Below are positions 9,227 through 63,628 of a DNA stretch of 64,000 nt, piece after piece. Below the pieces are notes generated by a model. The model was not told the origin of the DNA, made no database searches, and saw only the letters and a program-made list of their open reading frames with translations. The DNA comes from Deltaproteobacteria bacterium (lineage in GTDB: Bacteria; Desulfobacterota; Desulfobacteria; Desulfobacterales; B30-G6), in contig JAJDNW010000006.1 in assembly GCA_022340465.1 (NCBI GenBank), positions 7,530 through 71,529 on the forward strand, in the 5' to 3' direction. The number at the start of each line of letters is the position of its first letter. The stretch's first letter is position 1. The translations under genes and the position numbers were made by a program.

Positions 9227-10255
9227 TCAACTTGAAGAGCCTCCCTCACCCGAGCCCACATTGATCGGCTTGTTCTCTTCCACACGGTCTACTGGTAAAC
9301 CTGAAAATTCGCTGTCAACGCGAACGATTGGGTTCGGAGCAGTCCGAATGGTCAGTTGAAATGCATCGGGCCTGGCATAATGGCCGGCTACATCCAAATT
9401 CCACTTCGTGCCCCGGATATTGTTTAAATCCACATCGGCATATAAAATTCCTTCCTCTTTGCTCAATGGGCCGGCCAGAATATTTCCTTCAGGATCGGCA
9501 ATCATGCTGTTGCCCGTGTTTATCCAGTCACCGGCTTCTTTGTAGTATGGCTCGAGTTGTGGCATGCGCTCGAGGATATCTCTTTTTTTTAGAACCATAC
9601 AACATCCGACAACATAAACCCGGCCTTCCCTTCCAATGTGGCGAAGCGTGGATTGCCAAGCCTCCCCTTCATCGTATGTTGGTGCCACGTAGAGTTCAAT
9701 ACCCCTACCGTAGAGGCTGTATCGGACTAAAGGCATGTAGTTCTCGTGGCAAATCAGCCCTCCTATTTTGCCAATATTTGTATCATATACATCGAGAGTA
9801 CTTGGATCTCCATATGCCCAAACGGTTCGCTCGGACACCGTAGGTACGAGTTTCTGATGGTAACCTATAATATTTCCATCCGGTCCAATTAGGATATTCG
9901 TATTGAACAAACTTCCTCTGCTCGCACTCTCATTTCGTTCATTAACACCGATGGACAAGTATATCCCTGCCTCTTTCGCGGCCTGGCCCAACCTGTCTGT
10001 TGTCGGGCCCGGTATGGTGACGGCCTGATCTACAAGCTCTCCATAAAGCTGCTGATTTAATACGATCTGGCCGGCTGGAACAAGCCATATCCAGTCAGGG
10101 TAGGTTGGGATGAAAACTTCGGGGAAAACAGCTAACTTGGCACCATTATCACCGATTTCCTTAATCAGAGAACACGCCTTGGCAACGGTTGCATCGCGAT
10201 CCATGAATACTGGAGATGCTTGCACGGCTGCAATCCTAAATGATTTTTTTTCCAT
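9227..10255 (-). CDS. nitrilase / carbon-nitrogen hydrolase family protein
   Basis: 342 aa. Catalytic E (AVFPEVFIP), K (YHQKLVPT) and C (GGLICHENYMPL) in the standard order. The Cys motif reads CHEN rather than the commoner CWEN. Confidence 0.85.
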   Translation of the reverse strand: MEKKSFRIAAVQASPVFMDRDATVAKACSLIKEIGDNGAKLAVFPEVFIPTYPDWIWLVPAGQIVLNQQLYGELVDQAVTIPGPTTDRLGQAAKEAGIYLSIGVNERNESASRGSLFNTNILIGPDGNIIGYHQKLVPTVSERTVWAYGDPSTLDVYDTNIGKIGGLICHENYMPLVRYSLYGRGIELYVAPTYDEGEAWQSTLRHIGREGRVYVVGCCMVLKKRDILERMPQLEPYYKEAGDWINTGNSMIADPEGNILAGPLSKEEGILYADVDLNNIRGTKWNLDVAGHYARPDAFQLTIRTAPNPIVRVDSEFSGLPVDRVEENKPINVGSGEGGSSS

Positions 10256-10621
10256 GTCATTGTCCTTTGAAGATCAGCGCATGACGCACTGTACGGTTGT
10301 ATTTAACGATATTGTATATATCAATCCCGGTTCCATGGGCAACCAACAAATAAAAAGGCCGGCTTGCCTAACGAATGGCAACCCGGCTTTCTATTTAAGA
10401 ACCGTGGCTTTCCGTCCCTGTTTCACAGCAGGTTTGGTTTTTTCATTTCATTCTTATCAATATATATCTTAATTTTTGACACAATGTGGTATTTGTCAAA
10501 TCTAATTTCGACTCTCAAGCAGCTAATAGTGATATGTTTATCATCTTGCGGTGTAGGCAGTTTAGTCATTTGGGCAATTTTATTTTCTAAGCCAATTGCA
10601 GATATGAAAAGTTGGAAAATA

Positions 10622-10693: not shown

Positions 10694-12232
10694 TTACTGG
10701 CGGCTCGCGTTTGATTGCATCTCCATCAAAACGTTGTCTATACTCAGAGAGCTTCCTTTCGTTGGCGGAAACTCCTTGAAACTCTCAAGAAATTTCGCCA
10801 CATACGCCTGGGCGGGAACAAACAAAAACATGGTTTCAGCATAAAAATTACGAAGGTACATGGATGAATCCATTCCCACCTCGTAAGGATCCATCCTCAA
10901 ATTAACGATAATCGGCCAACTTGGTGTTTTGCGATATGCTTCATTAATGGATCCTTCCATGATGGTGAAGTGTGCCTTCCAGTCATTGTAGCGTACTGCA
11001 TTCAGATGGCCCCCTGCATCAAAGTAGAAAATTTCTTTTCTTTTTCCAGAACCTTTACCAGTGAGAAGGTCCATCTGATTGTACCCATCAAGATGCACCT
11101 TGAAATTCTTGCCGGCAGCCTGATGTCCCTTAAGCAACTTTTCTTTGATATCCGGTTCGCCGGCAGCAGCCAAAAGGGTGGGCATCCAGTCTTCATGGGA
11201 AAAAATGTCATTGATAACGGTACCTGGTTTTATGTGACCGGGCCACCTGACCATCTCTGGTACGCGAAAGCCGCCTTCCCAGGTCGTACCTTTCTCACCG
11301 CGAAACGGTGTCGTGCCTCCATCAGGCCAGGTAAACTTCTCCGCGCCATTGTCGGTGCTGAATATAACGATGGTGTTGTCGGCAATGCCCAGTTCCTCCA
11401 ACTTGTCCAGAAGTGCGCCGACACTGTCGTCAAGCTCCATCATACCGTCGGCATAGAGACCATAACCGGACTTATTTTTGTATTTGTCACTCAAATGAGT
11501 CCAGACGTGCATACGCGTTGTGTTATGCCAGACAAAGAAGGGTTTGCCGGCCTTATGGGCTCTCTCAATGAAATCAAGGCTGGCATTGAGAAACTCGGTA
11601 TCAGCTGTTTCCATCCTTTTTGAAGTCAAAGGGCCGGTATCTTCGATCTTACCATCAGCAGTGGCGTGTATCACACCCCTGGGGCCAAACTTTTTATGGA
11701 ACGCTGGATCGTTAGGGTAAAACTGACTCTCCGGTTCTTCTTCAGCATTGAGGTGGTAAAGATTGCCAAAAAATTCGTCGAAACCATGTTTGGTGGGCAG
11801 GTGCTCATCCCGGTCGCCAAGGTGGTTCTTTCCGAATTGCCCGCTCATATAACCATGGTTTTTTAACAGTTCCGCTATGGTCGGGTCCTTATCCTGAATA
11901 CCTTGCTTGGCACCCGGCATACCGATGGTTAACAAACCTGTGCGGAACGGATGCTGGCCAAGAATGAAGGAAGCACGCCCGGCGGTACAGCTTTGCTGTG
12001 CATAAGCATCGGTGAAGATAGCCCCTTCATTTGCGATTCGATCAATATTTGGAGTTCTCCCCCCCATCAAGCCGTTGTGGTAGGCGCTGATGTTCATTAC
12101 GCCGACATCATCGCCCCAGATTACCAGAATGTTGGGTGTGTCTGTTGCCGCCGCCATGCCGTTGGTGAAGGTCAGCAAGATAGCTGCGGCAGCTATGAGC
12201 ATCAAAAATAATAGTTTTCCTTTAATCATCAT
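10694..12232 (-). CDS. secreted Cys-type sulfatase (arylsulfatase family)
   Basis: 512 aa. N-terminal signal peptide (KLLFLMLIAAAAILLTF..AAA), metal site VIWGDDVG, FGly motif SCTAGRASF (C-x-A-x-R variant), GKNHLGD. Confidence 0.85.
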   Translation of the reverse strand: MMIKGKLLFLMLIAAAAILLTFTNGMAAATDTPNILVIWGDDVGVMNISAYHNGLMGGRTPNIDRIANEGAIFTDAYAQQSCTAGRASFILGQHPFRTGLLTIGMPGAKQGIQDKDPTIAELLKNHGYMSGQFGKNHLGDRDEHLPTKHGFDEFFGNLYHLNAEEEPESQFYPNDPAFHKKFGPRGVIHATADGKIEDTGPLTSKRMETADTEFLNASLDFIERAHKAGKPFFVWHNTTRMHVWTHLSDKYKNKSGYGLYADGMMELDDSVGALLDKLEELGIADNTIVIFSTDNGAEKFTWPDGGTTPFRGEKGTTWEGGFRVPEMVRWPGHIKPGTVINDIFSHEDWMPTLLAAAGEPDIKEKLLKGHQAAGKNFKVHLDGYNQMDLLTGKGSGKRKEIFYFDAGGHLNAVRYNDWKAHFTIMEGSINEAYRKTPSWPIIVNLRMDPYEVGMDSSMYLRNFYAETMFLFVPAQAYVAKFLESFKEFPPTKGSSLSIDNVLMEMQSNASRQ

Positions 12233-25696: not shown

Positions 25697-25749
25697 GTTC
25701 TTAATGGCTGCATGACGGCAATTGGGTATCGATTGCAATGAGGGGCAAC

Positions 25750-26349
25750 ATGAAGCTGGCCATTCCGGTTTTTCATACAAAAATTTCCCCCAGGTTCGAC
25801 GAGACGCAGGGATTTGTTCTTCTGGAGACAGAGGGCGGCAACGTCGTTTCCAGAGAGGAGCTGTCGACGAGGGGATGGTCGGAAATCGAAAAGATAAAGC
25901 AATTGCTGAATCTCGGTGTCGAGACGCTGATTTGTGGCGGCATCGACCGCTCTTCTTTGCAGTATTTGAGTTTCAATGGCGTTCATGTCTTTTCCTGGGT
26001 GACGGGTGAGATCGAAGATGCCGTAACCTGTTTCCTGGACGACCGCATGAAGCCCGGCATCATTTTGGGAGCGCAGGGCAAGATGACGGGGCGGTGGCAG
26101 TTTTGCAAGGGTAGGAATCACGTGTGCAACATGTTTCAGACCGGTTTTTACCATGCTGTTGAGGAGGTGAAGACGATGCCGAAAGGCGATGGAACAGGAC
26201 CGCGCAGCCAGGGACCCCAGTCCGGAAGAGGTCGCGGCGGATGCAAGGGCGGTAAAGGCGGCCGCGGCCAGGGTAGAGGGCAGGGACGCGGGCAGGGCGC
26301 TGACACGGGCCAAGGGCCCAAGTCCGGAGGAGAGAAGGGAAGACGGTAA
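25750..26349 (+). CDS. NifX/NifB-like (MTH1175-like) domain fused in frame to a DUF5320-like Gly/Arg-rich tail
   Basis: N-terminal KLAIPV...ISPRFDETQGFVL...ICGGID resembles dinitrogenase FeMo-cofactor-biosynthesis-like domains. From 26176, MPKGDGTGPRSQGPQSGRGRGGCKGG... matches the MPxGDGTGPxGxGPxTGRG start of DUF5320 proteins. GAGGAGGTG lies 6 nt before that internal ATG. Confidence 0.75.
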   Translation: MKLAIPVFHTKISPRFDETQGFVLLETEGGNVVSREELSTRGWSEIEKIKQLLNLGVETLICGGIDRSSLQYLSFNGVHVFSWVTGEIEDAVTCFLDDRMKPGIILGAQGKMTGRWQFCKGRNHVCNMFQTGFYHAVEEVKTMPKGDGTGPRSQGPQSGRGRGGCKGGKGGRGQGRGQGRGQGADTGQGPKSGGEKGRR

Positions 26350-26560
26350 GCACGTGTTGGAATAAAGCGCCCGCATCGGGCTGGCCGGAGAGATTGGCTC
26401 GCGGCGAGCCGGGATGGTGCGCGAGGAAAAACAGACGAATGCCTGACGGGGGTGTGTAGCGCACCGTGAGGCGGAACATCCCCTGCGGCTTGCCGTAGCA
26501 AAGTGCAGGTCACGACCCTCGGGGCGTGCCTGCCGGAGGGGATCGAAATGGGATGCAGAG

Positions 26561-26941
26561 ATGATGCGAACAATCGTTGCCGGCACGGCGTTGGCTGCCG
26601 CGTCGGCCTTCATAGAAACAATTAAAGCAAACAGCGTCAGGGTGCTGAGCCTGGACACTGCCGGGGAAGCGATTGCAGCGCTGTCAGCAGGGGGGTTCGA
26701 CCTGCTGGTGGCGGCGGAAGATTTGGGGGACATGTCGGGGCTCGAACTGATCGAAGCCGTGGTCAAATCGAGCCCCATGCTCAACTGCGCCGTGGTGAGC
26801 TCGCTTTCGCCCGAAGACTATCATGAGGCCAGCGAGGGGTTGGGGATATTGATGCAGCTGCCCCCCGACCCCGGACCGGAGGAAGCCGTGGCACTGGTCA
26901 ACCATCTGAAAAAGATTCGATCGTTCGGGGTGGGGCCATGA
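26561..26941 (+). CDS. receiver-like (CheY-fold) protein, degenerate
   Basis: 126 aa. DLLVAAEDLGDMSGLELIE resembles the phospho-acceptor region, but the N-terminal acidic pair is absent. Stop overlaps the next start (ATGA). Confidence 0.5.
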   Translation: MMRTIVAGTALAAASAFIETIKANSVRVLSLDTAGEAIAALSAGGFDLLVAAEDLGDMSGLELIEAVVKSSPMLNCAVVSSLSPEDYHEASEGLGILMQLPPDPGPEEAVALVNHLKKIRSFGVGP

Positions 26942-27786
26942 TTATCAGCGTAGCAAGCGGTAAAGGCGGAACCGGCAAAACGACCGTGGCCACCAATCTT
27001 GCGGTTGCCATCGGCGAGGGCGTGCAGCTTATGGATTGCGACGTCGAAGAGCCCAATGCCCACTTGTTCGTTGCGCCGTCCATGGACCGATCGCGAACCG
27101 TTTTTACCATGGTGCCCGAAATCGACGAGCAAAAATGCACTCTGTGCCGCAAGTGTGTGGAGATCTGCCGTTTCAAGGTGATCGCCATTGCCGGCAAAAC
27201 CATCCTGACGTTCCCGGAGCTTTGCCACAGCTGCGGCGGCTGTACGGCCGTGTGCCCCGAGGGGGCCGTTGCCGAGGGCCGACGTGAACTCGGGGAACTG
27301 GAGCAGGGATCGTTCCGGGCCGGGTATTTCGCCCACGGTCGCCTGCGGGTCGGTGAGGCCATGTCGCCCCCGCTGATCAGGGAAGTCAGATCACAGGCCA
27401 GACCGGACATGGTCAATATCATCGATGCCCCTCCCGGGACCTCCTGTCCGGTGATAGCGGCCATGAAGGATACGGATTTTGTGGTCATGGTCACGGAGCC
27501 AACCCCTTTCGGCCTCCACGATTTAAAACTGGCTGTCGAAGCGGTGAAACTGTTGAAGATACCCCACGGCCTGGTGATTAACCGCTCCGATATGGGCAAT
27601 GACATGGTGAGGGCGTATGCGCAGGCGGAAAATCTTCCGATTCTGATGGAGATACCCTTTGATAGAAAGATCGCGGAGGCTTATTCCAGGGGCATCCTGA
27701 TGGTGGATGCTCTGCCGGAGTGGCGGGAAAAGTTTAAAGGGCTGTTTGAGAGCATCACTTTTTATAGTTCTGTTGAGAAGACATGA
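26938..27786 (+). CDS. MinD/ParA-type P-loop ATPase with inserted 2x[4Fe-4S] ferredoxin domain
   Basis: 282 aa. Deviant Walker A SGKGGTGKTT, then CTLCRKCVEICRF and CHSCGGCTAVCP, then IIDAPPGTSCPV. Confidence 0.85.
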   Translation: MIISVASGKGGTGKTTVATNLAVAIGEGVQLMDCDVEEPNAHLFVAPSMDRSRTVFTMVPEIDEQKCTLCRKCVEICRFKVIAIAGKTILTFPELCHSCGGCTAVCPEGAVAEGRRELGELEQGSFRAGYFAHGRLRVGEAMSPPLIREVRSQARPDMVNIIDAPPGTSCPVIAAMKDTDFVVMVTEPTPFGLHDLKLAVEAVKLLKIPHGLVINRSDMGNDMVRAYAQAENLPILMEIPFDRKIAEAYSRGILMVDALPEWREKFKGLFESITFYSSVEKT

Positions 27787-27932
27787 TACCACACATTGAA
27801 AATGTTAACCGGCTTAACTTACTGACGCTGAACGTTGTCAAAACACCTTTCCATTGGATATCCGCATTGATGAATACAAAGAAAGAAAAAATTCTTGCTT
27901 TAACTCCCTTCATCTTCCACCGGCGGCTGTTA

Positions 27933-27948
27933 TGGAAACTTTGTTGCT
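27933..27948 (+). promoter_or_regulatory. candidate internal sigma-54 promoter
   Basis: TGGAAACTTTGTTGCT. GG/GC spacing is correct (12 nt), the -12 TTGCT is perfect, and the -24 keeps only TGG. TATGGAAAC is duplicated 20 nt downstream. Lies in an AT-rich 213-nt spacer, 52 nt before the ATG at 28000. Confidence 0.35.
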
Positions 27949-27999
27949 ATATGGAAACCTCACCGGCTGAGCCGGTGGCTTGTGAAGGGAGTTAAGCGC

Positions 28000-28869
28000 A
28001 TGAAAGAGTTGGTCATTCTAAGCGGCAAGGGTGGAACCGGAAAGACGAGTCTGACGGCAGCTTTTGCCTCGATTGCCGAAAACAGCGTGCTTTGCGATGC
28101 GGATGTGGATGCCGCCGACCTGCACCTCCTGATGAACCCGGTCGTGCGGGAACGCATGGAATTTATGGGGGGCAACCTGGCCGCCATCGACCCCGGCAGA
28201 TGCTCTCAGTGCGGCCAGTGCATCGATCTCTGCCGCTTCGACGCCATTTCCAGCGATTTCGTGGTCGATGAAATCGACTGTGAAGGCTGCGGCGTCTGTG
28301 TCGATTTCTGCCCCGAGCAGGCCATCGATTTTCCAATCAACAAATGCGGCGAGTGGTATATTTCCGAGACCCGCTTCGGTCCCATGGTGCATGCGAGGCT
28401 GGGCATTGCCGAGGAGAATTCCGGAAAGCTCGTGACCCTCGTTCGGCAGGAGGCCGGCAAACTGGCTGAATCCACAAAGCGGGAGTTGATTATTACGGAC
28501 GGCCCCCCGGGTGTGGGTTGCCCGGTAATTGCTTCGGTGGGAGGGGCCACGGCCCTCCTGGTGGTCACGGAGCCGACGGTATCGGGAGTGCATGACATGC
28601 AGCGCCTGCTGGACCTCGCCGCTTATTTCAAGGTTCCCAGCATGGTTTGTGTGAACAAATACGACTTGAATCCGGAGCAGAGTGCGGCCATCAAGGAGCT
28701 GGCGGACGAAAAGGGCATACCGTATGTCGGTAACATCCCCTTCGATCCCCAGTTTGTCGAATCCATGGTTGCGGGCAAAACGGTTCTGGAGCATCGACCG
28801 GATGGTGAATTGGGCGCTATTGTCAAGCAAGTTTGGGCGAGTGTCCAGGGAGAAATGAACATTAACTGA
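28000..28869 (+). CDS. MinD/ParA-type P-loop ATPase with inserted 2x[4Fe-4S] ferredoxin domain (paralog)
   Basis: SGKGGTGKTS Walker A, CSQCGQCIDLCRF and CEGCGVCVDFCP, ITDGPPGVGCPV. ATG at 28000; the ORF-track GTG at 27982 is less likely. Confidence 0.85.
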   Translation: MKELVILSGKGGTGKTSLTAAFASIAENSVLCDADVDAADLHLLMNPVVRERMEFMGGNLAAIDPGRCSQCGQCIDLCRFDAISSDFVVDEIDCEGCGVCVDFCPEQAIDFPINKCGEWYISETRFGPMVHARLGIAEENSGKLVTLVRQEAGKLAESTKRELIITDGPPGVGCPVIASVGGATALLVVTEPTVSGVHDMQRLLDLAAYFKVPSMVCVNKYDLNPEQSAAIKELADEKGIPYVGNIPFDPQFVESMVAGKTVLEHRPDGELGAIVKQVWASVQGEMNIN

Positions 28870-28886
28870 CAGGGAGAATTGGATCT

Positions 28887-29279
28887 ATGCAAAACGGAAG
28901 GATAGCAGTCCCCTCGAACGGGGCAGGCGGCTTGGACGGTATGCGGGCAGGACACTTCGGACATTGTGATGTCTTTACCTGCATCGACGTCGAGGACGGT
29001 GAGATAAAGAATGTTTCCATTATTCAGAACGAGGAGCATGTTCAGGGCGGTTGCATGGTGCCGGTGAATCTTCTGGCAGGCCACAAGGTCAATGCCCTGA
29101 TTGTGGGGGGCATCGGCATGCGGCCGCTGATGGGTTTCAAACAGGTGGGCATCGACGTGTACCACGATGCCGTAAGACCGGAGATACGGCCGGTGGTGGA
29201 AGATCTGATCGCCGGCAATCTGCCGGAGATTCGCAGCGATCAGGTGTGCGGCGGCGGTGGCGGTCGTATGGCGTCTTAA
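28887..29279 (+). CDS. NifX/NifB-like (MTH1175-like) domain protein
   Basis: 130 aa. RIAVPSNG...HFGHCDVFT...LIVGGIGMRP pattern of the dinitrogenase FeMo-cofactor biosynthesis domain family. Confidence 0.8.
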   Translation: MQNGRIAVPSNGAGGLDGMRAGHFGHCDVFTCIDVEDGEIKNVSIIQNEEHVQGGCMVPVNLLAGHKVNALIVGGIGMRPLMGFKQVGIDVYHDAVRPEIRPVVEDLIAGNLPEIRSDQVCGGGGGRMAS

Positions 29280-29300
29280 TATGGAAGAGGGGAGCAGGAA

Positions 29301-29660
29301 ATGAAAATTGCCGTTACATCTCAGGGAACGGATTTAGATGCACAGGTTGACCCCAGGTTCGGCCGCGCCAAGTATATTCTGATTATCGACATGGACGATG
29401 GCAATCTGGAAGTTCTGGACAACGCCGAAAATGTGAACGCCTTCAAGGGGGCGGGCATTCAGGCGGCAGCTAGCGTGGGCGACAGGGGGGCTGACGTGTT
29501 GCTGACAGGTTACTGCGGTCCCAACGCGTTCAAGACCCTGGCCGCGGCCGGGGTCAAAGTGGCCAATGACGCTTCCGGAACGGTCAGGGAGGCGGTGGCG
29601 GCTTTCGAGGAGGGCCGGTTGACCATCGCCGACGGGGCCAATGTGGATGGCCATTGGTAA
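29301..29660 (+). CDS. NifX/NifB-like (MTH1175-like) domain protein
   Basis: 119 aa. KIAVTSQG...VDPRFGRAKYILIID...LLTGYCGPNAFKTL, the canonical form of this family. Confidence 0.8.
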   Translation: MKIAVTSQGTDLDAQVDPRFGRAKYILIIDMDDGNLEVLDNAENVNAFKGAGIQAAASVGDRGADVLLTGYCGPNAFKTLAAAGVKVANDASGTVREAVAAFEEGRLTIADGANVDGHW

Positions 29661-29859
29661 CAGACGGGCAGTAATGTCCCATAGGGGGAGTAGATGAGCT
29701 CATAGCTGCCAGGTCATCGTTCATGGCACGCTATCAGCTATGCGTTATGCGCTTTTTCCTCCTCGCCCCTGGGCCCCCATGCCTTCGGCTTTAGCGGAAG
29801 GTGATTGACTTTGATTATAAAACGTTATGAACCTCAACCTTGAGGTGAACCGTTTTCGA

Positions 29860-29922
29860 CACCACCGGCAGAAATCTTCCCTCTCTGGAAACCAAAGCCA
29901 GATTCCCTCGCTGCCGGTGGTG
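29860..29922. repeat. perfect 12-bp inverted repeat CACCACCGGCAG-N39-CTGCCGGTGGTG in a 414-nt non-coding gap
   Basis: Read directly. The 39-nt spacer contains a nested TCTGG/CCAGA pair. No convincing ORF spans it. Confidence 0.6.
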
Positions 29923-30073
29923 TTGAAGTCCTCGAGTCGTTTTTCGGTCGGGACGGTATCTTCCCCCCGGTTGTCGATCAACCTTCGTTTGGACTATAGG
30001 TTATTAAAATTGATTTGTTATTTTGCATCCTTGTGGTTCAAAATGCATCAGGAAAAATGTGGTGCAGGGAGGG

Positions 30074-30505
30074 ATGATGAACGACAGGGATTTTGATTTC
30101 TTTCGGGACCATTCGAGAAACTATCTCGAGATGGCCCTCACCAGGGATCGGCAGGAATCGATGGCCAACCCTGACGGCTACGGTCGACGAACCGGCGTCT
30201 GCGGGGACACCGTGGAAATATTCTTAAAGGTCGGGCAAGGCCGTGTGGAGAGCGTTTCCTACCAGTTGGACGGGTGCATCAACACGAATGCCTGCTGCAA
30301 CACCGTCGCCGTGATGGCCGAAGGGAAGAGCATCGACAGCGCCTGGGGCATTACGCCGGAAAAAGTGATCGATTTTCTGGGGACACTCCCGCCGGAGAAT
30401 GCCCACTGCGCCGAACTGGCTGTAGGGGCGTTGTACCTCGCGCTTGCCAACTGCAGGGAACTCGGCCGCCATCCCTGGAAAAAGGCATACAGCGTTCACC
30501 GGTGA
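30074..30505 (+). CDS. IscU/NifU-N-like Fe-S cluster scaffold protein
   Basis: GVCGDTVEIFL...VSYQLDGCINTNAC...NAHCAELAV: three-Cys scaffold pattern (C-G-D, internal C, H-C). ATG at 30074 after GCAGGGAGGG. Confidence 0.75.
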   Translation: MMNDRDFDFFRDHSRNYLEMALTRDRQESMANPDGYGRRTGVCGDTVEIFLKVGQGRVESVSYQLDGCINTNACCNTVAVMAEGKSIDSAWGITPEKVIDFLGTLPPENAHCAELAVGALYLALANCRELGRHPWKKAYSVHR

Positions 30506-30560
30506 CCTGCATCGGGAGCGATGCGTCGACCACGGCTGTAAATCAATCAAGGAGGGGAGC

Positions 30561-30914
30561 ATGGCGAATTTTTTGTTTGTGCTGAGTAAGGATGACAACC
30601 AAAAGGCGACGCGTTGTTTTCAGTTCGCCAAAATTGCCGCCGAGAAGGGGCATGACGTAAATTTGTTTTTCGTAGACGGCGGGGTTATGTGGGCCGACTC
30701 CACCAGGGATTTCAACACAGCGACCACCACCGGGGACTGCCCCAATGATTACCTGCCGTATATTGTGGAGAATGAAATCCCCATCGGCGTCTGAATCCCC
30801 TGTGCCAAGGCTCGTCAGGTTGACGAGAGCAATTTTTTCAGCAACATGGCACTGGATGGCGCCCCCCGTCTCATCGACCTTGCTGCGGAAGCAAGGGTGT
30901 TCAACTTTGACTGA
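30561..30914 (+). CDS. DsrE/DsrF-like protein, predicted selenoprotein (TGA 30792-30794 read as Sec)
   Basis: ATG after GGAGGGG. The DsrE-like fold sequence stops at ...ENEIPIGV-TGA, but the same frame stays open for 39 more codons (IPCAKARQVDESNFF...AEARVFNFD) to TGA at 30912, completing the family C-terminus and giving a U-I-P-C motif. Hairpin CTCGTCA-GGT-TGACGAG at 30811-30827. Confidence 0.7.
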
Positions 30915-30926
30915 TAAGGAGAGATC

Positions 30927-32282
30927 ATGAAAAAAGGAGAAAAGCTTGTCATCGTAGGGTGCAGTGGCTCAGGGGGGCCGGCTGCCATGCGCGCGCGCCA
31001 ATTGATGCCCGATATCGACATAACGGTCATCCGCAAGGAAAAGTGTTTCATCGTCAGGTGAGCGCTTCCGCATGTGGTGGCCGGTCTGGCTGCCGGGGAA
31101 TCGGTGATTATGCCCGACAAAATGCTTGAAAACGCCGGAATCAACGTTGTCAGAGACGAGGTGGACCAGGTGGATCCCAAGAGTCGACGCGTGATGACGA
31201 CCGGTGGTAAAACGTTTGCATATGACAAATTGTACCTGGCCATGGGGGCCAGCCCCTTTATTCCGCCCATCGAGGGAAAGGACCTGAAGGGGGTCGTGGC
31301 ATTGCGCGGCCTATCCGATGCTGAAAACATCAGAGCATACATGGCCGAAGAAAAACCCAGAAATATTATTTTCATCGGTGCGGGCTTTATCAGCATGGAA
31401 ATTGCCTCGCTGATAGCGCAACACATGCCCTATAACTACAACATCAAGGTGATCGAACTCATGGACCGGCCGCTTCCACTGATGCTGGATAAAGAGATGG
31501 CGGAACTGGTCCAGTCCTATCTTGAGAAAAAGGGGATCGGTGTCCTGACCGGGAAGAAGGTGGAAAAACTGACCGGGCAGAATGGGAAAATCGCTGCCGT
31601 GGAACTGGCTTCCGGTGAAAAATTCGCTGCGGACCTGGTGTTTATGAACGTGGGCGTACGGCCCAACGGTAAGCTCGCCATGGACATGGGCCTTGAAATG
31701 GGCCAGTTCGGCATCAAGGTGAACGCCTATCAGGAAACGTCGGACCCCCACATCCTGGCAGGAGGCGACTGCGTCGAAAAGATCAATTTCATTACCCAGA
31801 AGCCAACGCCGGGGCAGCTTCGCGGGCCGGCGGTGCTCCAGGGACGCCTGGCAGCCAAACGGCTGGCCGGGTTCGACATTCCCTTTCCGGGCGTCGTGGA
31901 CGCGGGCGGCTGCAAAATGTTCGATCTCACCATTACGGCCACCGGCCTTACCGAAGAACGCGCCGCCCAGGAGGGCATCGAAACCATTTGCTCCGTGGTC
32001 GATTCCCGCAGCAAGCACAACATGATACCGGGCACGCAACCATGGAAGATCAAATTGGTGTTCAACAAGCACAACCAGGAGCTGATCGGTGGACAGATCG
32101 TCAGCCGCGATGTGGGACCGGCAAGGGAAATCGATGCCGTTACCGCCTTTATCCTGGGCAGGAAGACCATTGCGGACCTGACCACGTTTACGTCCGCCTG
32201 CAATCCGGACATCTCGTCGGAACCGAGTGCCGAACCGATTACCATTGCGGCGGAACAAGCCCTGGGAAGACTGAGACCGTAA
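30927..32282 (+). CDS. CoA-disulfide reductase / NADH oxidase family flavoprotein, predicted selenoprotein (TGA 31059-31061 read as Sec)
   Basis: ATG at 30927 gives MKKGEKLVIVGCSGSGGPAAMRARQL...KCFIVR-TGA-ALPHVVAG in the same frame as the 402-aa ORF at 31074. The TGA aligns with the redox Cys of the SFANC(A/G)LPY motif. The GxGxxG FAD fold lies only upstream of the TGA. Hairpin GGTGGCC-GGTCT-GGCTGCC at 31076-31094. Confidence 0.75.
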
Positions 32283-39537: not shown

Positions 39538-40995
39538 ATGATAAGATCAAGCAGCGGTGGGATAGACACTGTCCGGTTTTTAAAGGACAGTGACATGCAG
39601 AAGATTCATGAGCAGGCGCTATACCTGTTGGAGAATACCGGCATCGGCATCGAGCACCAGGTAGGCATGGAGATGCTCGAAAATACCGGCGCTGTTGTGG
39701 ATTACGACAAGAAAACAGCCCGCTTTTCAGCGTCGCTGGTGGAAAAGTGCCTGGCATCCGTACCCCGTAAAATCACCCTGGCCGGCAGAAATCCGGAGCG
39801 AGACCTGATCCTGGAACCAGGCGGCACCATTCGGACCCGCAATACCGGCGGGATGACCCAGATACACGACCTTGAAACCGGGGAAATCAGAGAATCCGTT
39901 CTTTCTGACACGGCCGACTTTGCCAGGCTCTTGGACGGACTGGACAACATCGATTTCATTGCGCCTCTATATGCGGCCGACGTGCCCCTTGAAATCCTGG
40001 AGCTCCAGGTGCTGGAAACCATGATGTGCAATACGGACAAGCATATCAACATCCGGGCTCTAGACAAAAGGACCTTTCCCTATCTTATCAAGATGGGCGA
40101 GATCGTGGCCGGCGGTAAGGAAGCTTTGAAAAAGCGACCGGTCATCAGCATTCTCGAAGCACCCATTTCCCCGCTGGTATTCCCCGATGTTTTTGTTGAT
40201 TCGCTCCTTTTAGGCGGGGAGGCCGGAATACCAATCGAAATCTGTTCTATGCCCAACGTGGGCGGAACCGGACCGATTACCCTGGCGGGATCGCTGCTGC
40301 TATCGACGGTCGAACACCTGGCGACCATTGTCATTTCACAGACGGGTTGTCCGGGGGCGCCCCTAGTCTGGGCATCGCGCTTCCCGGCCCTGGACATGAA
40401 GACCGGCAACACTGGCATGCTCACGGAGGGTGCCCTGGTGTCGGCGGCGGCCGCCCAGTTGGCATCGGAACACTACAACCTAATCTGCGACCTGCACGGC
40501 CCGGCCACCAATGCTGTCAACCCGGAAGGCGAGTCCGTCTTCGAAGAGTGCATCGGTGCGTTCGTGACGGGCTTTGCTGGGCGCCCGGCCGTTCTGTGCG
40601 GTGCAGGCGGGATGGAGCTGGGCATTGCCACCAGCTTCGAGCAGCTGGTCATCTCCAATGAGATTTATGCGGTGTTCCGCAGAGTACTGGAAGGATTTGT
40701 TGTCAATGACGATACGCTGGGCATGGATGCCATCGCTCAGGCGGGGATCGGTGGCAATTACCTGGGAGAACAGCACACCCTCGACCACCTGCGCAGCGAA
40801 CGGTTGAATTCCGACCTGCTGAAACCGAAAACAAGGGCCAAGTGGCTCGAAGAGGGCTCTAAAAGCCTGGTTGACCTGGCCCGTGAAAAAGCACGCGCCA
40901 TCCTGGCGGAGCACAAACCGGCGCGCCTGGACGACGCCACCCTGGCAAGCCTCAAAGCACTTGTCAAGAAGGCACAAAATGAATTCACCGGCTAA
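39538..40995 (+). CDS. MttB-superfamily (trimethylamine methyltransferase-like) protein, non-pyrrolysine
   Basis: 485 aa, uninterrupted (no in-frame TAG). LSDxxxxKIHEQAL.LLE.TG., [23 protein letters not shown] blocks are typical of PF06253-type proteins as I remember them. Confidence 0.8.
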   Translation: MIRSSSGGIDTVRFLKDSDMQKIHEQALYLLENTGIGIEHQVGMEMLENTGAVVDYDKKTARFSASLVEKCLASVPRKITLAGRNPERDLILEPGGTIRTRNTGGMTQIHDLETGEIRESVLSDTADFARLLDGLDNIDFIAPLYAADVPLEILELQVLETMMCNTDKHINIRALDKRTFPYLIKMGEIVAGGKEALKKRPVISILEAPISPLVFPDVFVDSLLLGGEAGIPIEICSMPNVGGTGPITLAGSLLLSTVEHLATIVISQTGCPGAPLVWASRFPALDMKTGNTGMLTEGALVSAAAAQLASEHYNLICDLHGPATNAVNPEGESVFEECIGAFVTGFAGRPAVLCGAGGMELGIATSFEQLVISNEIYAVFRRVLEGFVVNDDTLGMDAIAQAGIGGNYLGEQHTLDHLRSERLNSDLLKPKTRAKWLEEGSKSLVDLAREKARAILAEHKPARLDDATLASLKALVKKAQNEFTG

Positions 40996-47058: not shown

Positions 47059-48519
47059 ATGTTAAAGACACGCAATGGCGGCATCAAAAGTGTTCGGTTT
47101 TTAACGAATGCGGACTTTTTGAAAATTCATGAACAATCCCTTTGCCTGCTGCAGGAAAAAGGGGTCGGGATTACACATGAATCTGCGCTAAAAAACCTGG
47201 CGGACTGCGGTGCAAATGTCAATTTTCAGACCAAGAACGTCACCATCAGTGCTGGCCTTGTTGAACAGGCTCTCAAGACAGTACCCCGTGAAATAACCAT
47301 GGCTGCAAGAAGTCAGGAGCGGGATATCGTCCTGGAACCCGGCGGAAAAATGTATACCAGGAATTCGGGGGGCATGACCCAGATCGTGGATATTGAATCC
47401 GGAGAGATAAGAGATGCGGTGCTTTCCGATACAGAAGATTTTACAAGGCTTGCAGATGCGTTAGAGCATATCAATGTGGTGGCCCCTCTATACCCTAGTG
47501 ATATGCCGCTGGAAATTTTAGAGCTGTATACGCTGAAAGCCATGTTCAAGCACACGGACAAGCATATAAGCGTGCGGGCACTGAATCCGGGGACCTTTCC
47601 TTTCATTGTAGAGATGGCCGGAGCTGTTGCCGGTGGTAGTGAGAAATTAAGAAAGCGGCCGATTATCAGTATACTGGACTCCCCCATATCCCCATTGTCT
47701 TTTCCCGATATTTTCGTAGACGCCTTGTACACAGGCGGTGAATACGGGATCCCGGTGGAAGCATGCTCCACACCGAATATCGGGGCCACCGGCCCCATAA
47801 CTCTGGCCGGCTCCCTGCTGCTGGCCAATGTCGAACAATTGGCCACCATCGTTATCTCACAGTTGGCCCACCCTGGTGCACCCCTTATATGGGCACCGAG
47901 GTTCCCCGCAATGGATATGTCCACCGGCATTACGGGCATGCTGACGGAGGGTGCCTTGATTTCAGCCGCGGCGGCACAAATGGCGGAGGAGTTCTATCGG
48001 CTGATCTGTGACTTTCATGGTCCGGCAACCAATGCCATCGTCGCTGGCTCGGAATCTGTTTTCCAGGAGTGCATCGCTGCATTCGTGACATCTTTTGCAG
48101 GCAGGCCGGCCTTATTGTGCGGGGCCGGGGCCTTGGAACTGGGGATCATTGCCAGTTTTGAAGATTTGGTTATCGCTGACGAACTTTTTGCTGTCTTGAA
48201 AAGGTCCATTGATGGCATCATCATCAATGAGGATACACTTGGGGCCGATGCAATAGCGGACGTCGGCATCGGGGGACATTATCTAGGCCACGAACACACG
48301 CTGAAACACCTCAGGGACAATCGTCTGAATTCATTCTTGTTGAAACCCAAAACCAGGGAACAGTGGGTTGAACAGGGCTCTCCATCGCTCGTCAAGAGGG
48401 CCGGTGATAAGGCGCGGGAGATATTGAAACATTACCAACCTGGAAAATTGGATGAGAGAACAGAAAAGGAACTTAACAACATCATCCATGCAGCCCACAA
48501 GGAATTATCCGATAATTAA
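47059..48519 (+). CDS. MttB-superfamily protein, non-pyrrolysine (paralog of 39538-40995)
   Basis: 486 aa, collinear with the first copy. Long shared blocks ([62 protein letters not shown]). Confidence 0.8.
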
Positions 48520-53229: not shown

Positions 53230-54345
53230 TTAACCGGATCTGATTTCCTCAATCAGCTTATTAAAAGTACTTGATGTGTGGTGATAAAAGTTCAGCCAAC
53301 CTTCACAAAAATGACTGACGCCACCGGTTTTCACTAAATAACCGCGGTGTTTTAAACAGTCGCCTTGGCACAAGTCAAGATAGACGCAGGATTTGCATTC
53401 TGTTGCCACTACTGATTTTTGACAGCCAAAGTCCTGGAAGATTGACGAAGAAAGGGCCTCTTCCCAGCTTGTGTCCATAATATTGCCAATTTTTAAATCC
53501 TGCCGGACAAAAAAATCACATGGAAAAATATCACCGTTGTGTTCCACCAGAAAATACTGACAGCAATTATTAGAGAGGCTGCAGGCCGTTATGGAACCAT
53601 CATAACGTTTATTGAGAATATCATCAAAGTGGCGCACCGAAACTTTGTGAATATCATTCGGGTACCATGCGTCAAAAACCTCCAGTAGGAACCGTCCCCA
53701 TTCAGGTCCGCTGATTGAATAGGGAAAAGGATTGCCTTTTGGGTCTAATTCCAGGCACGGGATGTATTGATGATAATAGAAACCTCGCTTTACAAGATAC
53801 TGGTAAACCTCACGGGCATGTCTCACATTGGCCTGACTGACCACGGTAAGAATGTTTACGGCTACACCGAAGTGCTGCAACCTCCGGATTCCGTTGAGGA
53901 CGATCGAGTGAGAGCCTTTACCGCCTGAAAATTTTCTGAATCGATTGTGTAATTCAGGGGGGCCATCGAGACTGCAACCTACCAGATAACAGTAGCTCGC
54001 TAAAAACTCTGCCAGGGTATTGTCAATGAGGGTTGCATTCGTCTGGAGGCCATTTGAAACCAGTGAGCCGGGGCGGGCATACTTATTCTGAAACCCGGCA
54101 ACCTGTTTAAAAAATTCGACGCCCATCAGGAGGGGTTCACCGCCCTGCCATCCAAAGGTATAATTCGGTTGGTCGGTTTTCAGATAGGTTTTCACCAATT
54201 GCTCGAGCACGGTCTCAGGCATTCTGTGAGCTCTGGATTGAGGGTACAGTTTGCGCTTATCCAGGTAGAAACAGTAGTCACAGTTCATATTGCAGTCCGC
54301 AGAAGTTGGCTTTATTAAAAGGCTGAATGGCTTCACAGACGACAC
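53230..54345 (-). CDS. anaerobic sulfatase-maturating enzyme (radical SAM/SPASM)
   Basis: 371 aa. LLIKPTSADCNMNCDYCFY (CxxxCxxC), GGEPLL, C-terminal Cys clusters (CQYF...CDFF..., CKSCVYLDLCQGDC), typical of anSME. Confidence 0.85.
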   Translation of the reverse strand: MSSVKPFSLLIKPTSADCNMNCDYCFYLDKRKLYPQSRAHRMPETVLEQLVKTYLKTDQPNYTFGWQGGEPLLMGVEFFKQVAGFQNKYARPGSLVSNGLQTNATLIDNTLAEFLASYCYLVGCSLDGPPELHNRFRKFSGGKGSHSIVLNGIRRLQHFGVAVNILTVVSQANVRHAREVYQYLVKRGFYYHQYIPCLELDPKGNPFPYSISGPEWGRFLLEVFDAWYPNDIHKVSVRHFDDILNKRYDGSITACSLSNNCCQYFLVEHNGDIFPCDFFVRQDLKIGNIMDTSWEEALSSSIFQDFGCQKSVVATECKSCVYLDLCQGDCLKHRGYLVKTGGVSHFCEGWLNFYHHTSSTFNKLIEEIRSG

Positions 54346-61363: not shown

Positions 61364-63628
61364 ATGAGCGGTTCCGAGCAATTCAAAGGCAAGATCGGAC
61401 GCACCATAAAAGATTCGACGCCCTGGTGGCCTGCACCCAGGCGTCCGAAAGCGGGTAGTCCGAATGTGGTGGTCATCCTGCTGGACGATACCGGGTTCGG
61501 CCATTTCGGCTGCTATGGATCCACGATTGAGACGCCTAATTTCGACCGTCTGGCCGCGGGCGGGCTGCGCTACAACAACTTCCACACCACGGCGCTGTGC
61601 TCTCCCACAAGGGCCAGCCTGTTGACCGGGCGCAATCATCACACCGTGGGCATGCGCGCCCTGTCCAATTTTGACACCGGTTATCCCCACATGCGCGGTT
61701 GCATCTCACCGCATGCAGCCACCATCGCCGAAATTCTGCGTGAAGAGGGCTATGCCACCTTAGCTGTCGGCAAATGGCATCTGGCGCCCATGGAGGAAGC
61801 CTCAACCGCCGGACCGTTCGACAACTGGCCCTTGCAGCGCGGGTTCGACCGTTTTTACGGTTTTTTGCAGGGGGAAACCGATCAGTTTCATCCTGAGTTG
61901 ACCTATGACAATCACCCGGTTGATCCGCCCTGCGGACCGGAAGAGGGCTACCACCTCAGTGAAGACCTTGTCGATCAGTCCATGGCCTTTATCCGCGATT
62001 CAACGTCCATTCGGCCGGATCGGCCCTTTTTTCTGTACCTGGCTTTCGGAGCCACCCATTCGCCGCATCAGGCCCCCCGGGAATTCATCGAAAAATATCG
62101 CGGCCGTTTTGATGAGGGCTGGGATGTCGTCCGTGAAAAATGGTACCGCAGGCAGATCGAAATGGGGGTCATTCCTGAAGATACGGAGCTGGCACCGCGC
62201 AATCCAGGGGTGCGTCCCTGGGATGCGCTTTCGGAAAACGAGAAGAAGTTTGCCCTGCGGCTCCAGGAAGCGTTTGCCGCCATGCTGGATCACACCGACC
62301 AGCAGGTTGGGCGGCTGATCGATTTTCTCGAAGAGATGCAACAAATCGACAACACCTTGATAGTACTGCTCTCGGATAACGGTGCCAGCCAGGAAGGCGG
62401 CCCCACCGGTGTGATGGACGAGTTCAGGTATTTCAATGGGGTGCCTGAAGACGTTGATGCCGTCCAGGATCGGCTGGATGAAATCGGCGGACCCCACAGC
62501 CATTCCAACATCCCCTGGGGTTGGGCCCAGACTGGAAATTCACCCCTCAAGTGGTACAAGCAAAACACCCACGGCGGCGGTGTCCGCGACCCCCTGATCA
62601 TGCATTGGCCCGCACGCATTAAGGGCCACGGGGGGGTTCGCGGCCAATTCCACCATGTTTCGGACATCGTACCGACCATCCTGGAGATGTTGGATGTCGA
62701 CCCGCCCGACACCTACCGCGGGTGTGAGCAGATGCCCATGACCGGGACATCCATGGCCTATAGCTTTGATGAGGCCAACGAGCCTACCCGCAAGCAGGTC
62801 CAATATTTCGAGATGTTCGGACACCGCGGTATCTGGGCCGACGGCTGGAAGGCCGTCACCTACCACCGGCCGGACACGCCCTTTAGTGACGATGAGTGGG
62901 AGCTTTACCATCTGACCGAAGATTTTTCCGAAAGCCGCAACCTGGCCGCCGAACATCCCGATAAACTGCGCGAAATGATCGACCTGTGGTGGGTTGAAGC
63001 CGGACGGCAGGGTGTGCTGCCCTTGGACGACCGTCGTTTTTTATTTCAATCCATGCGCCGTCCTGGCACACCGCATGAAAAGCGGCACTATACCTACTAT
63101 CCTCCGCTCTCGCATGTGCCCTCGGATGTGGCGCCCACCCTGGGCAGCCGCACCTGGACCATGCGCGTCGAGGTTGATCGGCCGGATGCCTCCGTCCAGG
63201 GTGTCATCGCGGCCCAGGGGACCCAAAACGGCGGATACAGCTGGTATATCAAGGATAACAAAATGGTGTTCGACTACAATATTTTCACCGAACACCATGT
63301 GGTCCGTTCTGATACAGAGGTCCCCATCGGTCGGATCCCGCTTGAAATACGCTTCGTGCGCGATGGAGATACCGGAAAGATCACCCTGGTGATGGAAGGA
63401 CAGGAATGCGGTACCATCCAGGTGCCTTATGTGATGCGCATGATCAGTTCCACGGGCCTCGATATCGGCAAAGACAGCCTGTCGCCGGTAACAAACGACT
63501 ATGCGGCCCCATTTGCATTTGGCGGGAGAATCCGCAGGCTCGATGTCGTCCTGCACCGCTACCGCAGCCCCAAGGAAAAGCAGGAGGATGAAGACGTCAG
63601 GATGCGCACCGAAATGGCCAAACAATAG
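61364..63628 (+). CDS. Cys-type sulfatase, large (754 aa), no signal peptide
   Basis: VVILLDDTGFG metal site, canonical FGly motif LCSPTRASLLTGRNHH, GKWHL, LSDNGAS, ~230-aa beta-rich C-terminal extension. The N-terminus is hydrophilic (MSGSEQFKGKIGRTIKDSTPWW). Confidence 0.85.
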   Translation: MSGSEQFKGKIGRTIKDSTPWWPAPRRPKAGSPNVVVILLDDTGFGHFGCYGSTIETPNFDRLAAGGLRYNNFHTTALCSPTRASLLTGRNHHTVGMRALSNFDTGYPHMRGCISPHAATIAEILREEGYATLAVGKWHLAPMEEASTAGPFDNWPLQRGFDRFYGFLQGETDQFHPELTYDNHPVDPPCGPEEGYHLSEDLVDQSMAFIRDSTSIRPDRPFFLYLAFGATHSPHQAPREFIEKYRGRFDEGWDVVREKWYRRQIEMGVIPEDTELAPRNPGVRPWDALSENEKKFALRLQEAFAAMLDHTDQQVGRLIDFLEEMQQIDNTLIVLLSDNGASQEGGPTGVMDEFRYFNGVPEDVDAVQDRLDEIGGPHSHSNIPWGWAQTGNSPLKWYKQNTHGGGVRDPLIMHWPARIKGHGGVRGQFHHVSDIVPTILEMLDVDPPDTYRGCEQMPMTGTSMAYSFDEANEPTRKQVQYFEMFGHRGIWADGWKAVTYHRPDTPFSDDEWELYHLTEDFSESRNLAAEHPDKLREMIDLWWVEAGRQGVLPLDDRRFLFQSMRRPGTPHEKRHYTYYPPLSHVPSDVAPTLGSRTWTMRVEVDRPDASVQGVIAAQGTQNGGYSWYIKDNKMVFDYNIFTEHHVVRSDTEVPIGRIPLEIRFVRDGDTGKITLVMEGQECGTIQVPYVMRMISSTGLDIGKDSLSPVTNDYAAPFAFGGRIRRLDVVLHRYRSPKEKQEDEDVRMRTEMAKQ

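Follow-up and report, generated by a model that had tools for sequence, protein, structure and literature searches.

Is the TGA codon at positions 30792-30794 of the DNA studied here the end of a short DsrE-like gene, or is it read as selenocysteine (Sec) within a longer one? The stretch, 64,000 nucleotides of contig JAJDNW010000006.1 from a Deltaproteobacteria bacterium (assembly GCA_022340465.1), was analysed at its full length and is called the window in the following. The open reading frame (ORF) in question starts with the ATG at 30561 and reaches the TGA after the residues ...ENEIPIGV, and the same frame goes on for 39 sense codons (IPCAKARQVDESNFFSNMALDGAPRLIDLAAEARVFNFD) to a true stop, the TGA at 30912-30914. 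In public assemblies that contain exactly this gene the product has been called as a protein of 77 aa only, a mis-annotation that had been foreseen in a first-pass annotation made from the letters alone; the ORF, the TGA, the 39-codon continuation and the coordinates of the hairpin described below, which that annotation had also given, were all found to be right when the sequence was read again. Our analysis leads us to conclude, with a probability of roughly 0.93, that 30561-30914 is a Sec-encoding DsrE-like gene which carries a functional selenocysteine insertion sequence (SECIS).

A DsrE-fold protein with a predicted selenocysteine at the active-site position

The product of the whole frame matches the Pfam family DsrE (PF02635) over positions 3-116 of the 116 positions of the profile, with 68.1 bits (cutoff 22.7) and an E-value of 1e-18. 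As this match spans both sides of the TGA, the two halves constitute one domain. Among 5.8 billion proteins searched there were 1114 homologs; the best of them have 116 aa and an identity of 70-78%, and their alignment shows strong conservation of the 39-codon tail. The TGA, which stands in the motif GV-U-IP-C of the translated window protein, falls onto a column that is an invariant Cys in 22 of 22 aligned homologous proteins, within G-[VI]-C-[TI]-P-C, and that is also Cys in the 108 Cys-type genes described in the next section.

A phmmer comparison with the PDB placed residue 78 on two known cysteines, Cys78 of DsrE from A. vinosum (2hy5_A) and its counterpart in TusD from E. coli (2d1p_A). 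Cys78 of DsrE is the persulfurated residue that hands sulfur to DsrC, and the proposal has been made that the active site of the entire DsrE superfamily lies here (PMC3397948). A Cys-type homolog with 78% identity is modelled confidently by AlphaFold, with a mean predicted local distance difference test score (pLDDT) of 92.6, as a DsrE/YchN-type domain in which residue 78 lies between strand 75-77 and helix 79-84. The closest PDB folds to this model are DsrE-fold proteins, including 1jx7 (YchN), 2hy5_A and 3mc3, with template modelling (TM) scores of 0.76-0.82. In addition, the family of the window protein has the extra invariant cysteines Cys19, Cys60 and Cys81. The profile match and the homolog fold agree with the DsrE assignment of the first-pass annotation, and the Sec/Cys column, which it had suggested checking by alignment with Cys-containing homologs, is borne out by the 22 homologs and the 108 Cys-type genes.

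Distribution of the Sec-type gene

To look for Sec-type orthologs, a single genome of each of 185,579 species was scanned with a degenerate nucleotide pattern consisting of the invariant GDCP-x-D motif, 12 codons and then G-[VIM]-TGA-[TIM]-P-C. In this species-level scan a TGA at the Sec78 column was found in at least 120 species genomes, mostly of the Desulfobacterota. The carriers among the matches listed belong to the Desulfobacterales, the Syntrophobacteraceae, the Desulfatiglandales and Desulfosalsimonas, and those from outside the Desulfobacterota are single metagenome-assembled genomes of Nitrospiraceae and Nitrospinaceae. From the matches listed, which were named L001-L120, a Sec-type set of 117 unique sequences was obtained. 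As a control, the same pattern with TGY in place of TGA was applied to metagenome contigs, which gave a Cys-type set of 108 unique genes (the Cys-type loci were named L121-L240).

An open frame of exactly 38 codons, ending with ...VFNF, follows the TGA in 117 of the 120 loci among the matches listed; two of the other three run off the end of the locus and one is disrupted. The motif U-[IT]-P-C is likewise conserved in 117 of the listed orthologs. Codons without conservation downstream of the TGA had been regarded in the first-pass annotation as a reason to give up the prediction, and this doubt is removed by the conservation of the tail in the homologs and in these 117 loci.

A hairpin that is conserved only downstream of UGA

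Shortly after the TGA the window sequence can form a perfect hairpin, CUCGUCA-GGU-UGACGAG. According to the model of the bacterial SECIS (bSECIS), such elements have a loop of 3-9 nt, a stem of 4-16 bp, a distance of 16-37 nt between UGA and loop and a minimum free energy (MFE) of at most -7.5 kcal/mol, with a G in the first two loop positions, usually as N1-G-[G/U]-N-N2 with N1 and N2 paired (PMC13188914). In the window the upper stem has 7 bp and the MFE is -9.0 kcal/mol; the stem begins 16 nt and the loop 23 nt after the TGA (30795-30817). The loop can be taken as GGU (3 nt) or, with the A:U pair open, as AGGUU (5 nt), i.e. as A-G-G-U-U with a pairable A:U, and the G, G and U show little or no variation in the 117 listed Sec-type sequences.

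Taken from the window sequence alone, the hairpin is only suggestive. Perfect 7-bp hairpins with loops of 3-5 nt occur 14 times in the window and about 12 times in shuffled sequences. Nevertheless, just 4 of the 1077 TGA triplets (0.4%) on the same strand have such a hairpin at SECIS distance with a G early in its loop. A second perfect 7-bp hairpin, CCTTGCT-GCGGA-AGCAAGG (30878-30896, + strand, -11.3 kcal/mol), is situated further downstream, in the 3' tail of the DsrE-like gene. Only the window has it in perfect form, its region folds weakly in the orthologs (mean -7.1 kcal/mol), and it is probably fortuitous.

Together with the comparative data the evidence for the first hairpin becomes decisive. 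Third codon positions elsewhere in the Sec-type genes carry 0.2-1.0 bits of information, whereas they are nearly fixed in the stretch CGU-CAG-GUN-GAC-GAG (+21 to +35), in which the only free position is the N beside the loop. In detail, the Sec-type codons in CGUCAGGUNGACGAG are CGU for Arg in 116 of 117 sequences, CAG for Gln in all 117, GAC for Asp in 116 and GAG for Glu in 110, while the same third positions in the 108 Cys-type genes carry 0.04, 0.01, 1.00 and 0.88 bits. The Gln and the Val of the encoded peptide R-Q-V-D-E are variable in the Cys-type and fixed in the Sec-type. As these synonymous sites are fixed with a UGA upstream and free in the Cys-type genes, the constraint acts on the RNA, and only when there is a UGA upstream.

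Folding leads to the same separation. The mean MFE of positions +12 to +45 is -10.4 kcal/mol for Sec-type and -4.25 kcal/mol for Cys-type genes (Mann-Whitney p 6e-31), the MFE structure contains the core pair in 116 of 117 Sec-type but 3 of 108 Cys-type genes, and the motif CGTCAGGTNGACG was found in 113 of 117 and 1 of 108, respectively. RNAalifold, applied to 115 sequences, gave an invariant core of 4 bp, CGUC/GACG, under an A-G-G-U-N loop. For the lower stem, the register in which A35 is bulged shows a covariation of 0.123 compared with 0.079 in shuffled alignments, of which none in 500 reached the observed value, and it also surpasses all slid controls. The lower stem differs between lineages, and no single structure is claimed for it.

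The 28-nt hairpin regions of 77 further genomes, but not that of the window, were used to build a covariance model (R1). It matches the 64-kb window exactly once, at 30806-30833, with 40.7 bits and an E-value of 5.8e-11, the next best match having 9.4 bits. The same model matches 20 of 20 held-out Sec-type loci (28-46 bits) but only 2 of 80 Cys-type loci. The first-pass annotation had predicted a SECIS at this place and had named a covariance model as one way to check it; both the single match and the conservation of the hairpin, which synonymous sites and folding mark as specific to the TGA forms, speak for this prediction.

The hairpin at 30811-30827, located inside the coding sequence and with its A-G-G-U-U loop closed by A:U, would accordingly serve the cell as a bacterial SECIS that recruits SelB with GTP and Sec-tRNA(Sec) to the ribosome. 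The UGA at 30792 would then be read as Sec and translation would end at the TGA at 30912, giving a single-domain DsrE-fold protein of 117 residues, in which Sec78, at the end of a beta-strand and just before a helix, is expected to pair with Cys81 as U-x-x-C.

Switches between Sec and Cys

The two Cys-type loci matched by model R1 are L156 (517-544, - strand) and L184 (142-169, - strand). Both have TGC at codon 78 together with an intact element (41.7 bits), both are near-identical to Sec-type genes, and the tail of L156 is identical to that of the Sec-type locus L100. Judged from these sequences they are best read as recent conversions from Sec to Cys that have kept a relic SECIS, and they are a direct demonstration that UGA and Cys codons are interchangeable at codon 78.

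Such switches seem to be rare. The nearest neighbour is of the same type for 113 of 115 Sec-type and 101 of 103 Cys-type loci, and the types can also be told apart by hallmark residues outside the SECIS, namely U-I-P-C and ...LIDLAAE... in the Sec-type compared with C-T-P-C and ...LIDMAAE... in the Cys-type. Therefore the Sec and Cys forms represent mostly separate, long-lived lineages.

The adjacent flavoprotein gene

The DsrE-like gene is followed by a gene for a flavoprotein that resembles CoA-disulfide reductases and NADH oxidases, with which it is probably co-transcribed. The domains Pyr_redox_2, Pyr_redox and Pyr_redox_dim were recognized in it, and TIGR03385 was matched with an E-value of 1.7e-76 but below the cutoff of that model. 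This gene contains an in-frame TGA as well, and public gene calls split it into 44 and 402 aa. This TGA is shared by 7 related loci, and in more distant homologs its place in the alignment is taken by the Cys of SYGACGLPYY, the catalytic Cys; the core GGCC-GGUCU-GGCC of the hairpin downstream of the TGA is identical in 6 distinct orthologs. By its sequence the flavoprotein gene is thus a predicted second selenoprotein gene, of a family that is already known (listed in PMC13188914).

The presence of two adjacent genes with conserved TGAs at catalytic sites and with GGU-loop hairpins makes it very probable that Sec is decoded by the organism. When the entire window was screened for genes with in-frame TGA, only the cases at 30792 and 31059 were credible; the remaining candidates are gene boundaries or antisense shadows. 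The features of both genes are compiled in Table 1.

Table 1. Positions of the features of the two predicted selenoprotein genes within the window
Feature	Position	Strand	Basis
Shine-Dalgarno sequence AGGAGG, 5 nt before the ATG	30550..30555	+	read from the sequence
DsrE-like selenoprotein gene (predicted), complete, 117 aa including Sec78	30561..30914	+	translation, Pfam, homolog alignment
In-frame UGA, predicted Sec78, matching the active-site Cys78 of DsrE/TusD	30792..30794	+	invariant-Cys column, PDB alignment
Cys81 codon TGT, second residue of U-x-x-C	30801..30803	+	invariant in Sec-type and Cys-type alignments
SECIS as matched by the covariance model (lower stem and core hairpin)	30806..30833	+	model R1 built without the window
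Hairpin CUCGUCA-GGU-UGACGAG, 7 bp, -9.0 kcal/mol	30811..30827	+	folding, synonymous-site fixation
Invariant hairpin core CGUCAGGUNGACG	30813-30825	+	RNAalifold, Sec-type conservation
CoA-disulfide-reductase/NADH-oxidase-like flavoprotein gene, 451 aa, predicted Sec45	30927..32282	+	domain matches
In-frame UGA of the flavoprotein gene, FIVR-U-ALPHV	31059..31061	+	ortholog conservation
Putative flavoprotein SECIS hairpin, 7-bp stem, loop GGUCU, 21 nt after the UGA	31076..31094	+	fold

Evidence against and alternative explanations

Several results weigh against a Sec-encoding gene with a functional SECIS and have to be set beside those above. With regard to the RNA, the core stem is invariant and hence yields no covariation in RNAalifold; a continuous 10-bp helix, which was tried as a model of the whole stem, shows no covariation beyond that of shuffles and fits less well than the register with A35 bulged. 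Compared with shuffled sequences, the 59 nt that follow the TGA have an unremarkable MFE (z = 0.34), and no SECIS family was found by Rfam scans of the whole window at gathering thresholds and of 30700-31200 at E-values up to 10. With regard to the decoding machinery, no tRNA gene was found in the 64-kb window and no tRNA-Sec in the 240 fetched loci, and SelA, SelB and SelD are not among the 20 large window ORFs scanned with NCBIfam, for which question a piece of 64 kb is uninformative; the Sec-decoding trait of the source genome is what we infer from the two genes. With regard to function, a review of 2026 that lists the DsrE-like UxxC family describes the functions as uncharacterised and the subfamily as being without experimental study (PMC13188914), and synteny is a poor guide, as the neighbourhoods are heterogeneous, the flavoprotein gene adjoins about 11 of 226 loci and no firm partner emerges.

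Among the alternatives, the one that survives best is that the UGA is read through but not as Sec, be it by near-cognate decoding as Trp or Cys, by read-through that the hairpin stimulates or by reassignment of UGA. This would be in line with the negative search for Sec machinery in the window. However, a genome-wide reassignment is excluded because the gene and its neighbours end in TGA. The position of the codon on the catalytic Cys column is the signature of a Sec/Cys pair, and the hairpin agrees with the bSECIS model including the G-G/U start of the loop and the spacing. Moreover, the family and related genomes are published users of Sec, e.g. the Olavius delta-1 symbiont (PMC1976440), from a genome of which the orthologous locus L055 comes. 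We therefore consider read-through without Sec to be very unlikely.

Even less can be said for the possibility that the TGA at 30792 is a true stop, so that the gene would encode a 77-aa DsrE fragment or be a pseudogene, with the frame downstream as a decaying remnant. Public gene callers annotate precisely this, and TGA does serve as an ordinary stop in the window, the one at 30912 included. A remnant would not, however, persist as exactly 38 open codons in 117 of the 120 genomes among the matches listed, and the Pfam domain requires both halves. The information per codon position is 1.54, 1.69 and 0.63 bits after the SECIS, similar to the 1.39, 1.66 and 0.59 bits before the TGA, and the codon differences between the tails of Sec-type sequences comprise 23241 synonymous and 11046 nonsynonymous ones, an excess of 2:1. 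In frame 0 the tail is open in 115 of 115 sequences, compared with 14 and 3 in the other two frames. The tail evolves like coding sequence, for which neither a true stop nor a pseudogene can account, and this explanation is scarcely tenable.

Hardly more credible is the view that CGUCAGGUNGACGAG is conserved for another reason, be it selection on the peptide R-Q-V-D-E combined with codon bias or a regulatory hairpin of an unrelated kind. It is true that Cys-type proteins, too, have conserved R, D and E and that the invariance of the core stem makes its pairing unprovable by covariation, but the third positions of Arg, Asp and Glu vary in the 108 Cys-type genes, which come from similar organisms, and are fixed only after TGA, Gln and Val are fixed only in the Sec forms, and the only Cys-type genes bearing the element (L156 and L184) are those close to Sec-type genes, as recent conversions predict.

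Comparison with known proteins and elements

A DsrE-like selenoprotein family (Pfam02635, UXXC) was described in 2005 by Zhang, Fomenko and Gladyshev in the selenoproteome of the Sargasso Sea (PMC1088965), and members were subsequently found in Desulfovibrio vulgaris in 2006 (PMC1794560) and in the Olavius delta-1 symbiont in 2007 (PMC1976440). The first-pass annotation had mentioned that such proteins were predicted in selenoproteome surveys, and these three papers, as well as the listing in the review cited above (PMC13188914), confirm this. The gene studied here shares with the published family, of which AACY01486889 and WP_014524487.1 are examples, the PF02635 domain, the U-x-x-C motif, a SECIS just 3' of the UGA and its home in the Deltaproteobacteria/Desulfobacterota. 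In these features no essential difference is apparent. The occurrence in at least 120 species and the near-invariance of the SECIS core found here exceed what could be seen from the few sequences in the papers.

DsrE of the A. vinosum DsrEFH complex (2hy5) and TusD of the E. coli TusBCD complex (2d1p) have the same fold (TM 0.76 to 2hy5_A) and, with Cys78, the residue that corresponds to Sec78. The identity is about 20%, however, and the window protein has Sec in place of Cys as well as the extra Cys19, Cys60 and Cys81, which are absent there. It also remains below the cutoffs of the respective models, with 26.5 bits compared with 89.25 for TIGR03012 and 26.2 compared with 92 for NF001237. No dsrF/dsrH or tusC/tusB partner and no second or third DsrE-fold gene adjoins the window gene. 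On these sequence comparisons the window protein does not qualify as an ortholog of DsrE or TusD. The best structural match is E. coli YchN (1jx7; TM 0.78, 117 residues), which is also a small, stand-alone DsrE-fold protein; the identity is 19% and YchN is itself functionally uncharacterised. A Sec form of YchN is not known.

SaoD, the CD2369-family protein of the SAO system, is described as never being a selenoprotein (Haft preprint 10.1101/2022.07.06.499078). Like the window protein it is small and DsrE-related, and it has an invariant CxxC plus a further invariant Cys and occurs in anaerobes that are rich in selenoproteins. The window, however, lacks an SAO-type neighbourhood, and the NCBIfam scan of the window protein gave only weak matches to TusD.

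With the bSECIS consensus and the SECIS of E. coli fdhF the element described here has in common that it is a hairpin within the coding sequence, just 3' of the UGA, with a small loop starting with (A)GGU. Its sequence, in contrast, is specific to this family and is matched by no Rfam model.

Gene neighbourhood

Upstream of the DsrE-like gene, a cluster of genes on the same strand (25738-30505, +) encodes three Nitro_FeMo-Co-domain proteins (25738, 28887 and 29301), a receiver-domain protein (26564), two MinD/ParA-type ATPases with 4Fe-4S domains (26938 and 27982) and a NifU_N protein (30023). Downstream of the selenoprotein pair, genes with a CCG domain and for a flavin adenine dinucleotide (FAD) oxidase were found. 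Across 226 loci the neighbours include Nitro_FeMo-Co (24), NifU-like (13), flavoprotein (11), Zn_ribbon_8 (10), CGGC-domain (9), methyltransferase (8) and URO-D-like (8) genes, the NifU-like ones occurring in 13 Sec-type loci and in none of the Cys-type. The neighbourhood thus has a flavour of thiol, metal and Fe-S chemistry, without a defined partner.

Further features lie elsewhere in the window. A c-di-GMP-I-GGC riboswitch aptamer (Rfam RF03167, 64.4 bits, above the gathering threshold; 10373-10447, -) is situated just upstream of a Nit6803-family nitrilase-like gene (9227-10255, -). Two genes of the MttB superfamily, i.e. trimethylamine methyltransferase-like genes (39538-40995, + and 47059-48519, +), contain no in-frame TAG; since their frames are uninterrupted they are presumably non-pyrrolysine members. 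Between and around them are genes for FGGY-type kinases, a major facilitator superfamily (MFS) transporter and a GlcD-like oxidase. In addition, two sulfatase-family genes and one for an anaerobic sulfatase-maturating radical S-adenosylmethionine (SAM) enzyme (TIGR03942, above the cutoff) are located at 10694-12232 (-), 53230-54345 (-) and 61364-63628 (+).

Possible function and significance

By analogy with DsrE, the selenol of Sec78 would most likely act either as an acceptor and donor of sulfur in the form of persulfide or as a redox centre that forms a selenenylsulfide. In the window locus, the recycling of Sec78 may be the task of the adjacent flavoprotein, which is CoA-disulfide-reductase-like and predicted to contain Sec. 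Alternatively, though improbably, the four invariant residues Cys19, Cys60, Sec78 and Cys81 might together bind a metal or a cluster, with the selenolate as one of the ligands. It is tempting, even though we think it improbable, to combine the Sec-DsrE-like protein and the Sec flavoprotein into a dedicated module, in which the NAD(P)H-driven reduction of the selenenylsulfide or persulfide of Sec78 would provide sulfur (or selenium) for the NifU-like protein, the MinD-type Fe-S ATPases and the Nitro_FeMo-Co proteins.

Both the family, known since 2005, and the mechanism of Sec insertion are established, and the current understanding of them is unchanged. What is added here is that the Sec form extends over at least 120 species, that the SECIS core is near-invariant and has left an imprint on the protein, that there are apparent converts with a relic SECIS and that the genes are systematically truncated in public calls. 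The last point is of value for annotation: both the DsrE-like gene and the flavoprotein gene are called as fragments in public assemblies (77 aa, and 44 plus 402 aa), at least 120 species genomes must have orthologs that are cut short in the same way, and a model specific to this family is missing from NCBIfam. In addition, the 117 listed Sec-type genes, the 108 Cys-type genes and the two converts make up an unusually clean natural experiment, which shows how a SECIS inside a coding sequence freezes synonymous sites and fixes two amino acids, Gln and Val. The two-selenoprotein module, if true, would mean that a selenium-dependent sulfur relay feeds metallocluster assembly in the Desulfobacterota. 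Finally, the predicted Sec at the position equivalent to the persulfide-carrying Cys78 of DsrE and TusD offers a defined target for the role of selenium in sulfur-relay chemistry.

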